From IMG/VR virus record IMGVR_UViG_2698536506_000007: a stretch of 18,447 bases of DNA. One strand, given 5' to 3'. Below, piece after piece: positions 16,768 through 17,378 of the stretch; positions within the stretch are counted from its first letter, which is position 1, and every line of letters begins with the position of its first letter. The DNA is from a virus (Duplodnaviria; Heunggongvirae; Uroviricota; Caudoviricetes). The position numbers and the translations under genes are program-made. The notes below the pieces were generated by a model. It saw only the letters and a program-made list of their open reading frames with translations, made no database searches and was not told the DNA's origin.

Positions 16768-16818
16768 ATCGCGTACATTTCACGTAAATATGATATTTTG
16801 CCGATTTTGTACGCGATG
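16768..16818. promoter_or_regulatory. Perfect 10-bp inverted repeat ATCGCGTACA ... TGTACGCGAT flanking a -10-like TATGAT (16789-16794); candidate late promoter / Q-utilisation region
   Basis: Inverted repeat at 16768-16777 and 16809-16818 directly downstream of the Q stop. Confidence 0.35.
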
Positions 16819-16833
16819 GCAAAGTAAGCAAAC

Positions 16834-16856
16834 CCCGCCGCCGAGCGGGTTTTTTG
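16834..16856 (+). terminator. Rho-independent terminator (candidate tR'-like)
   Basis: CCCGC-cgccga-GCGGG followed by TTTTTTG. Confidence 0.6.
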
Positions 16857-16870
16857 TTGGCTTAACAGGT

Positions 16871-16876
16871 TATAAT
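16871..16876 (+). promoter_or_regulatory. Perfect TATAAT -10 hexamer without a recognisable -35
   Basis: ggtTATAATgtacag; lies just downstream of the terminator and about 85 nt upstream of the MazF-like start. Confidence 0.3.
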
Positions 16877-16959
16877 GTACAGTGCGAAACTGCCTGTTCA
16901 GCAGAATCATTTTGTTTGTAGTGGAGTTCACAAGTCGTCATTATCAGGCAAAGAGATTT

Positions 16960-17361
16960 ATGGTGTTAAAGTATCAGCCGTCTGTTCGTTCTGTTTTAAT
17001 GTGTGATTTTCGGGGAATGGTTGTTCCGGAAATAGTCAAGGTCAGGCCAGTGGTAGTCGTGTCCAGAAACAGACACAACAATCAATTGGTAACAGTGGTA
17101 CCAATAAGCACTACTGAACCGATCCCTCGCAGAGATTGCCATCATGAGTTATCAGAAAACCCCATTCCTGGTAATGAGCATATTACTTGTTGGGTAAAAT
17201 GTGACATGTTGATGACGGTTTCATTGAGCCGACTGGATCGCATAAAAACCAGAACCTGGGAGGGGCGAAATTATATTGTTCCTATGATTGCGGAAGATGA
17301 GTTTGAGAATATTAAACGGGCGGTATTGCACGGGATAGGGATGGCTTATCTGTATCGATAA
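16960..17361 (+). CDS. MazF/PemK (Kid)-family toxin-like protein (133 aa), no adjacent antitoxin ORF
   Basis: Alignment by eye to E. coli MazF: CDF..G...E..K.RPVVVVS (MazF VDFDPTKGSEQAGHRPAVVLS), VVPISTT (MazF CVPCTT), C-terminus IVPMIAEDEFENIKRAVLHGIG (MazF VAPEELQLIKAKINVLIG); Arg and Thr are present at the positions of the MazF catalytic residues. Confidence 0.7.
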   Translation: MVLKYQPSVRSVLMCDFRGMVVPEIVKVRPVVVVSRNRHNNQLVTVVPISTTEPIPRRDCHHELSENPIPGNEHITCWVKCDMLMTVSLSRLDRIKTRTWEGRNYIVPMIAEDEFENIKRAVLHGIGMAYLYR

Positions 17362-17378
17362 TCGAAAACGATTATCGA
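17354..17378. promoter_or_regulatory. Palindrome overlapping the MazF-like stop codon
   Basis: ATCGATAATCG-aaaa-CGATTATCGA. Confidence 0.35.

Follow-up and report, generated by a model that had tools for sequence, protein, structure and literature searches.

MazF toxins are textbook members of type II toxin-antitoxin systems, which come with protein antitoxins, and in type I systems with enzyme toxins (SymE/SymR, RalR/RalA) a small RNA lies beside a nuclease-type toxin, in one case within a prophage. In AvcID, grouped here with the type III systems ToxIN, CptIN and TenpIN, the toxin protein is inhibited by a single small RNA, which disappears once a phage stops transcription in the host (PMC10511110). 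Here we analyse a locus in a stretch of 18,447 nt of Caudoviricetes DNA (IMG/VR record IMGVR_UViG_2698536506_000007; the whole stretch is called the window below), which is 100% identical to a chromosome segment of Escherichia coli strain C5, a cow isolate (NZ_CP010122.1). An earlier note, made from the letters of the window, had described a solo MazF/PemK-like toxin gene directly behind the gene of the late antiterminator Q. We found that this gene is accompanied by a conserved, structured RNA gene, and our best reading is that the two form a type III-like toxin-antitoxin or defence module.

The protein shares its fold with the type II toxins of the MazF/PemK group (Kid, ChpBK, EndoA), matches the same Pfam family (PF02452) and aligns with MazF at three catalytic-type positions. 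In contrast to MazEF, neither MazE nor any other protein antitoxin gene adjoins it in any lineage examined; compared with MazF, the protein has about 20 additional residues, scores below the cut-off of the NCBIfam MazF equivalog and belongs to a separate compact family. The likeness to type III systems lies in the position of a nuclease-type-fold protein beside a noncoding RNA with its own terminator, in the ability of the RNA to exist alone while the reverse is rare, and in the location on prophages and mobile elements. With SymE/SymR and RalR/RalA the locus shares a local complementarity between the RNA and the toxin mRNA in E. coli, which is not conserved across the family. As for its carrier, the module resembles the morons located between Q and the lysis genes of lambdoid phages (stx genes, tRNA genes, methylases), which are likewise self-contained units with a promoter-like site and terminators, inserted between Q/tR' and the holin gene and present or absent among otherwise similar prophages. 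Yet, in contrast to these, the cargo is a protein-RNA pair and not a protein gene alone, and the same cargo is found behind three unrelated Q families.

The MazF/PemK-fold protein

16960..17361, + strand: MazF/PemK-fold protein of 133 aa, 'YifN-type' family (Pfam, PHROG, AlphaFold2, Foldseek, hhalign)

The assignment of the 133-aa open reading frame (ORF) to the MazF/PemK family was supported both by profile search and by structure prediction. The PemK_toxin profile (PF02452) matches residues 12-95 with 52.6 bits against a curated cut-off of 23.1 (E 6.1e-14), and among the PHROG families the protein matches phrog_1936, 'MazF-like growth inhibitor' (6e-10), as well as a PHROG of unknown function (1e-47). 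The AlphaFold2 model, for which 58 homologues served as input, reached a pLDDT (predicted local distance difference test) of 94.2 and a pTM (predicted template modelling score) of 0.87. The best 50 solved structures retrieved with it by Foldseek are all chains of MazF, MoxT or YdcE (E down to 2.4e-7), and the leading fold matches in the PDB are MazF of S. aureus, B. subtilis, M. tuberculosis and E. coli, with target-normalised template modelling scores of at most 0.83. Searches of PDB sequences with the single sequence and with the family profile returned nothing relevant, and the link to MazF there comes from the fold comparison only. Judged by its predicted structure, which agrees with the MazF/CcdB-type SH3-like barrel and its C-terminal helix, the ORF encodes a genuine MazF/PemK-fold protein.

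In the hhalign comparison with E. coli MazF, the sequence of which was checked against PDB entries, Glu24, Arg29 and Ser50 are placed opposite E24, R29 and T52, with a probability of only 63%. All three residues are invariant across 58 family members, and Ser50 is directly followed by Thr51 and Thr52. Of the Arg and Thr previously assigned to the MazF catalytic positions, Arg29 is thus retained, whereas the supposed Thr is a Ser, because the alignment sets the invariant Ser50 opposite T52.

The protein family, named "YifN (PemK superfamily)" in the sources, comprises 822 clusters at E <= 1e-10 and 1334 at E <= 1e-3 among 1.84 billion representatives. Genome annotation pipelines call the gene "type II toxin-antitoxin system PemK/MazF family toxin" and offer no explanation for its orphan state, yet the NCBIfam MazF equivalog NF007386 is not reached (14.2 bits vs 120), and by sequence clustering the family is compact and separate from canonical MazF. 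Its members occur in Proteobacteria, in other phyla, in lambdoid prophages and in tailless Vibrio phages.

Search for a protein antitoxin

Within the inserted cassette (delimited below) the gene is flanked by 100 nt upstream and 70 nt downstream; as both flanks are too short for an ORF, no protein antitoxin can be encoded there. When the neighbours of about 75 loci were clustered, no recurrent small co-directional partner ORF emerged, and the clusters reflected taxon-specific synteny only, such as the LysR, lipoprotein and ketoacyl synthase genes in Pseudomonas. In Pseudomonas, Geobacter and Alcanivorax the neighbouring genes are unrelated or lie on the opposite strand. A type II MazEF system with an adjacent co-transcribed protein antitoxin was therefore rejected on the evidence of the flanks and of the neighbour clustering, and the earlier observation that no antitoxin-sized ORF lies beside the gene is confirmed.

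The small RNA gene

17432..17548, + strand: structured small RNA of about 115 nt (alignments, alifold, covariation count, fold z, cmsearch 136.9 bits)
17397..17425, + strand: RNA promoter, TTGACA, 17-nt spacer, GATACT (promoter scan, 10/12 matches)

The toxin gene is, however, not solo as had been proposed, since the conserved RNA gene at 17432-17548 lies just outside the part of the window to which that description applied. It came to light in an alignment of the sequences that follow the gene in E. coli, Enterobacter, Klebsiella, Xenorhabdus and Atlantibacter, five genera in which a noncoding block is far better conserved than the coding sequence itself. In the window, the RNA begins about 70 nt downstream of the MazF-like gene and ends with an intrinsic terminator (17515-37) and a U-rich tail. 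A -10 box ending 6-7 nt before the 5' end of the RNA recurs across taxa, which argues that the RNA is a separate gene.

The predicted fold has three hairpins as well as two single-stranded motifs that hardly vary, CUUGUGAGAC and the loop GAUGACAAG; for the copy in the window the folding energy is -43.9 kcal/mol (z = -4.88). In an alignment of 52 sequences from many taxa, 98.4% of the cells are paired, compared with 77.6% in shuffled alignments, and none of 500 shuffles attained the observed level; fitting this alignment to the RNA model biases it towards the structure, yet the difference is large. Compensatory changes were seen at 16 of the 19 base pairs of the RNA, and controls with slid partners were paired at 36-52%.

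The RNA is not in Rfam and would add a new family to it: across 4227 covariance models, neither the E. coli nor the Pseudomonas nor the Caulobacteraceae copies gave a match at the gathering score. At E <= 1 only chance-level matches to other parts were obtained, and a sub-threshold isrK match spans just the two terminators. Our literature search, which covered few subscription journals, yielded no description of the RNA or of the protein-RNA pair. ToxI-like tandem repeats were not found either; Tandem Repeats Finder reported only a 13-nt unit repeated 2.5 times, which corresponds to two palindromes. Two adjacent perfect palindromes (TCGATAATCG/CGATTATCGA and ATCGAATTCGAT, 17355-17385) fill the space from the stop codon of the toxin gene towards the -35 box of the RNA gene; they may represent an operator or a hairpin at the 3' end of the mRNA, and in Enterobacter another inverted repeat takes this position. 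Two further candidates were discarded. A pseudoknot of the 5' CUUGU with the loop ACAAG was rejected because changes in the 5' element have no matching changes in the loop, and a small peptide starting from the ATG in GAUGACAAG because its frame and length are not conserved (7-38 codons, with an indel frameshift) and the base pairs covary.

Linkage of the RNA and the protein

In 72 of the 80 species-level genome loci that had been selected by the protein, the conserved noncoding RNA gene closely follows the toxin gene and has the same orientation, and all enteric loci carrying the toxin gene have the RNA as well (37/37); such an adjacency is a trait of type III systems. The set of 80 loci spans Pseudomonas, Caulobacteraceae, Neisseria, Pasteurellaceae, Geobacter, Burkholderiales, and metagenome-assembled genomes of Chloroflexi and of the candidate phyla radiation. 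Viral loci with at least 45% identity all possess the RNA, except for one partial locus (L292), and with a broader model (R2) it was recovered in most of the more distant viral relatives too. Overall, the RNA is located next to the protein family in about 90% or more of the loci. Its position varies: in several clades it immediately precedes the gene, and in Alcanivorax the two are convergent.

When the search was started from the RNA, the protein was encoded 8-152 nt upstream in 20 of 32 viral contigs and in 78 of 112 assessable metagenome loci. The other 12 viral contigs and 34 metagenome loci have the RNA but not the protein, as do 13 of the 37 E. coli genomes with the RNA, the protein being present in 24. 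Clean deletions of the toxin ORF are seen in E. coli prophages, and they leave the RNA and even the start of the toxin leader in place. The toxin-less enteric copies of the RNA show changes at otherwise invariant positions and score 118-129 bits, below every toxin-linked copy (133-138 bits). That the adjacency persists through changes of order, and that the protein is rarely found without the RNA but the RNA sometimes alone, is the pattern expected of a toxin and its antidote. We are highly confident that the RNA exists and that it is linked genetically to the MazF-like protein family.

Fluorescent pseudomonads carry the RNA at a single syntenic site, with the order LysR, variable cassette, RNA, lipoprotein and aryl-polyene-type genes, and it is intact also where the protein gene is missing or has been replaced by a HigB/HigA-like pair. 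In metagenome loci the promoter and the RNA are located 16-44 nt after HigB/HigA-like killer/antidote pairs or a HicB-like antitoxin gene (L150, L168, L192, L193, L208, L226, L144, L163, L191 and L207; also L024, 10225-10353), and in some of the HigB/HigA-like loci a shortened antidote gene runs directly into the RNA. In an Oxalobacteraceae genome, a second copy of the RNA comes after a HicB-like gene. The placement behind other toxin-antitoxin genes suggests that cassettes are exchanged at the 5' boundary of the RNA gene.

One protein subclade, found in Pseudomonas (L087, L088, L094, L095, L097) and Alysiella (L079), has no RNA downstream, and a terminator directly follows the gene. All of its loci show a weak, shortened match to the RNA model just upstream of the gene (~5870-5990), individually non-significant at E 0.02-0.4; the order RNA, terminator, toxin is the canonical one of type III systems. 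Among isolated phages, the protein was found only in 11 records of Vibrio Vinavirales prophages, and INPHARED contains no record with the RNA. The pair is carried by Vibrio phage 10N.239.311.A09_PE001 (L257), a 13.5-kb temperate PM2-like tailless Vinavirales prophage of V. cyclitrophicus, where it is located at the end of the element (12724-13399) after cro-like and S24-repressor-like genes, with the RNA 134 nt downstream of the gene.

Possible modes of action of the pair

We propose that the RNA would bind the protein and keep the ribonuclease inactive, the two forming a type III-like protein-RNA toxin-antitoxin pair; we infer this step, like the toxicity of the protein, the trigger and an anti-phage role. 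In the lysogen there would be more of the RNA, made from a strong promoter, than of the weakly expressed toxin. Two triggers can be envisaged: an infecting phage may stop host transcription, upon which the RNA would decay and the ribonuclease be freed, as in ToxIN and AvcID, or, upon induction, Q-antiterminated late transcription might pass the first terminator behind Q and cause a sudden surge of toxin mRNA. In lambdoid prophages, where it leads the late operon, such a pair could serve abortive-infection defence in lysogens, shut-off of host RNA after induction, or both. We consider it an even bet that the RNA is a functional partner that restrains the MazF-fold protein. The wider claim, that a whole MazF-fold ribonuclease family (at least 800 clusters at 50% identity) is checked by one structured adjacent RNA and not by a MazE-type protein, we put forward at slightly under even chances.

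If true, a conserved RNA partner would explain how hundreds of apparently antidote-less MazF-like genes are tolerated, and the MazF fold proper would join the RNA-antitoxin systems, here with a structured RNA that lacks repeats. The pair would then stand for a new family, and a new architecture, among the type III-like systems. A small portable module of this kind in prophages of pathogens would be a candidate anti-phage or prophage-stabilising element. It also illustrates that "solo toxin" calls made from ORFs only can overlook RNA partners.

Several observations weigh against the proposal of an RNA-restrained toxin or set the locus apart from known type III systems. ToxIN, CptIN and TenpIN have tandem repeats of 34-36 nt, whereas here one structured RNA of about 115 nt is present in a single copy; in contrast to ToxIN-type loci, this RNA mostly follows the toxin gene and is driven by a promoter of its own. 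The protein belongs to the PemK/MazF type, and ToxN (PF13958) is not among its Pfam matches at E <= 1. No PADLOC defence model matched the MazF-like protein or its AraC-like neighbour, and the upstream RNA matches in the subclade described above fall short of significance. The RNA also directly follows other toxin-antitoxin genes (the HigB/HigA-like pairs and the HicB-like gene), and in Pseudomonas its copies without the protein, at the one chromosomal site, score as well as the linked ones (median 74.7 vs 75.4 bits, p = 0.07). Because it remains intact there without the protein, the RNA may have a role of its own, may protect against toxins encoded elsewhere, or may mark a hot spot for the exchange of cassettes.

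The same Pseudomonas loci suit a different explanation, in which the protein is not a toxin but a processing or binding factor of the adjacent RNA; the two would then form a regulatory ribonucleoprotein, with the RNA as the product, able to act alone. The occurrence of the pair at one syntenic chromosomal site in at least 20 Pseudomonas species is housekeeping-like, and the near-invariance of the single-stranded RNA motifs would fit such a role too. However, the family keeps MazF catalytic-type residues, the pair is patchy and mobile (24/5426 E. coli genomes; prophage cargo slots, proximity to restriction-modification and toxin-antitoxin genes), and it is the toxin ORF that was repeatedly deleted while the RNA was retained, and we regard this explanation as unlikely, at about one chance in five.

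Still less probable, in our view, is the model of the earlier note, a MazF toxin without any antidote that is silenced only by the upstream terminator and fired by Q on induction or by a compatible Q of a superinfecting phage. In its favour, the gene has Q before it and the lysis genes after it in prophages with three unrelated Q families, a terminator stands upstream, and there is no protein antitoxin. Yet the RNA partner is conserved nearly everywhere, the pair is found as well in chromosomal settings without Q and in the repressor operon of a Vibrio prophage, and the cassette has a promoter-like -10 downstream of the terminator.

A type I-like mechanism, in which the RNA would base-pair with the 5' untranslated region (UTR) of the toxin mRNA and block its translation or stability, was suggested by the following segments of the window:

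16890..16936, + strand: toxin 5'UTR segments complementary to the RNA, E. coli only (16928-36 vs 17444-52; 16890-909 vs 17450-69)

The shorter of the two complements is perfect over 9 nt and the longer one pairs at 75% over 20 nt. Moreover, UUGUCAUCACC, complementary to the RNA loop, is present in the UTRs of Enterobacter and Klebsiella, and the Neisseria duplex reaches z = -4.7. Over 51 loci, however, the energy of the duplex between the RNA and its own 5'UTR, computed with RNAduplex, is no better than with shuffled UTRs (mean z -0.16), and a motif search found the complement of the invariant RNA motifs not to be conserved upstream of the start codon. As the complementarity is not conserved family-wide, variable UTR pairing fails to explain the invariant single-stranded motifs, which are better accounted for by contact with the conserved protein; direct, type III-like inhibition of the protein by the RNA is therefore favoured, and we accord antisense control little credence.

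That the locus is a functionless, degenerate toxin-antitoxin remnant, the alternative offered originally, can hardly be maintained, for although the C5 prophage has decayed (insertion sequence in the holin gene, split recE-like gene), the ORF is intact and 98-100% identical in 24 E. coli genomes, including apparently complete prophages, retains every family-invariant residue and belongs to a family as large as the 822 clusters given above.

The cassette as prophage cargo

16072..16767, + strand: late-gene antiterminator Q, PF06323 type (Pfam E 1.5e-83; RefSeq annotation in C5)
16834..16857, + strand (hairpin 16834-49): intrinsic terminator 1, CCCGCCGCCGAGCGGG followed by a T run (terminator scan); left edge of the cassette
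17558..17578, + strand: intrinsic terminator 2, near-copy of terminator 1; right edge of the cassette, after which the backbone of gene-less prophages resumes

The C5 element is a lambdoid prophage beside yccA, and the window covers its left and middle part. The genes are arranged in the order integrase, recE-like exonuclease, dicB, repressor region, replication genes, DUF968, RusA, Q, MazF-like gene and AraC-type gene, and the Q-like identity of the gene upstream was confirmed by its match to PF06323. The absence of holin, endolysin and spanin genes, on which the earlier note had remarked, results from the edge of the window and the decay of the C5 prophage: 178 nt beyond the end of the window, C5 has a holin pseudogene truncated by ISEc12, followed by an abutting Mu-like prophage. 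In intact relatives, Q and the MazF-like gene are followed by variable cargo, two holin genes, endolysin and terminase genes. The gene hence does not take the place of the lysis cassette but occupies the usual lambdoid cargo slot between Q and the holin gene. The variable cargo after it consists of a methylase gene with tRNA genes, of TerB or, in C5, of the AraC-type gene.

The terminators flanking the cassette are near-identical direct repeats (16833-54 and 17557-78). In the gene-less prophage WP8, which has the same Q end and terminator, position 16857 of the window is joined directly to the sequence from about 17573. Since gene-less prophages join the post-Q terminator to the sequence after 17572, the insert can be delimited to about 16858-17557. 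Sequence comparison thus identifies the cassette (~700 bp) as a moron placed just after the post-Q terminator and upstream of the lysis genes; it contains, in order, a candidate weak promoter, the toxin gene, the strong RNA promoter, the RNA and a terminator. By the same comparison, the cargo slot is ordinary and the cargo unusual, consisting of a MazF-fold protein and a conserved, unannotated structured RNA.

Among 5426 complete E. coli genomes, the MazF-like gene is present in 24, always on the chromosome, and the Q backbone matches 1534; the E. coli copies of the pair are always located in prophage cargo slots. The adjacency of Q and the MazF-like gene recurs elsewhere, as all 22 enteric-type viral contigs with the gene encode a Q 196-1092 nt upstream, belonging to three unrelated families, and holins downstream. 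In other Enterobacteriaceae and in Xenorhabdus, the gene is found behind a lambda-type (PF03589) or phage 21-type (PF06530) Q gene, or in a Mu-like prophage, and always before the holin gene. Carriers include pathogenic E. coli (Shiga toxin-producing strains) and prophages of Klebsiella and Enterobacter. In a Mu-like Enterobacter prophage (L013, 3026-7133) without a Q gene, the pair is located between GemA, Mor and Gp27-type genes and the holin/lysozyme genes and is thus again ahead of the lysis genes. In three Enterobacter prophages (L014-L016, 5600-6340), the gap between the RNA and the holin gene contains about 750 nt without a called gene, the start of which resembles a tRNA 5' end (GGCCCTTTAGCTCAGTT).

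Chromosomes of Pseudomonas, Geobacter and Atlantibacter also encode the pair, at a great distance from any Q gene, and elsewhere it adjoins restriction-modification genes and other toxin-antitoxin genes. The proposed wiring to Q thus applies insofar as the gene lies within the Q-dependent late unit of lambdoid prophages, but not as a property of the module; because the pair occurs far from Q and in a Vibrio repressor operon, Q wiring is a trait of the host phage.

The region between Q and the cassette

16697..16857, + strand: end of Q, inverted repeat and first terminator, shared by prophages with and without the toxin (blastn spread, query 48-208; WP8 alignment)
16871..16876, + strand: TATAAT without a recognisable -35, candidate weak toxin promoter inside the cassette (sequence; not reported by the promoter scan)

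The inverted repeat and the terminator described behind Q were both confirmed, the former as a perfect repeat of 10 bp (16768-77/16808-17) and the latter as an intrinsic-terminator-like site followed by a T run. According to blastn, the block 16697-16857 is conserved at about 76-94% in many E. coli prophages, O157:H7 strains included, and it is kept in thousands of prophages without the MazF-like gene. In WP8, three differences in the arms of the inverted repeat still allow pairing through G-U wobble on the + strand. In Enterobacter relatives we read from the alignment the same block with a lambda-like promoter, TTGACT...TATGCT, before the terminator. The block probably comprises the late promoter, a short leader RNA (~70 nt) and tR'; TTGCAA (16749-54) and TACATT (16772-77) are candidates for the -35 and -10 of this promoter.

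The perfect TATAAT at 16871-76 is present as had been noted, but it has no usable -35 and was not reported by the promoter scan. It belongs to the inserted cassette and is probably not the late promoter, as the preceding block is more likely the late-promoter leader and terminator. The TATAAT persists in toxin-deleted variants (L107, L120, L128).

Other genes of the window

The cassette is followed in the window by a gene for an AraC-family regulator (17527-18447), closest to YdeO or GadX, which among the 5426 E. coli genomes occupies this position in strain C5 only. It matches phrog_1450 and the NCBIfam YdeO model (1e-43), yet with 150 bits against a cut-off of 348. The start annotated in RefSeq, 17527 (306 aa), would require the gene to cross the RNA terminator and the second terminator; the alignment with YdeO begins at residue 2 of the 248-aa form that starts from the ATG at 17701, which is the probable true start. 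In the rightward early region, an ORF of 110 aa is located on the minus strand (13869-14201) and annotated as a hypothetical protein; its product has a duplicated internal motif, DNVDNLRRE(I/V)DSRFNS, and a hydrophobic C-terminus.

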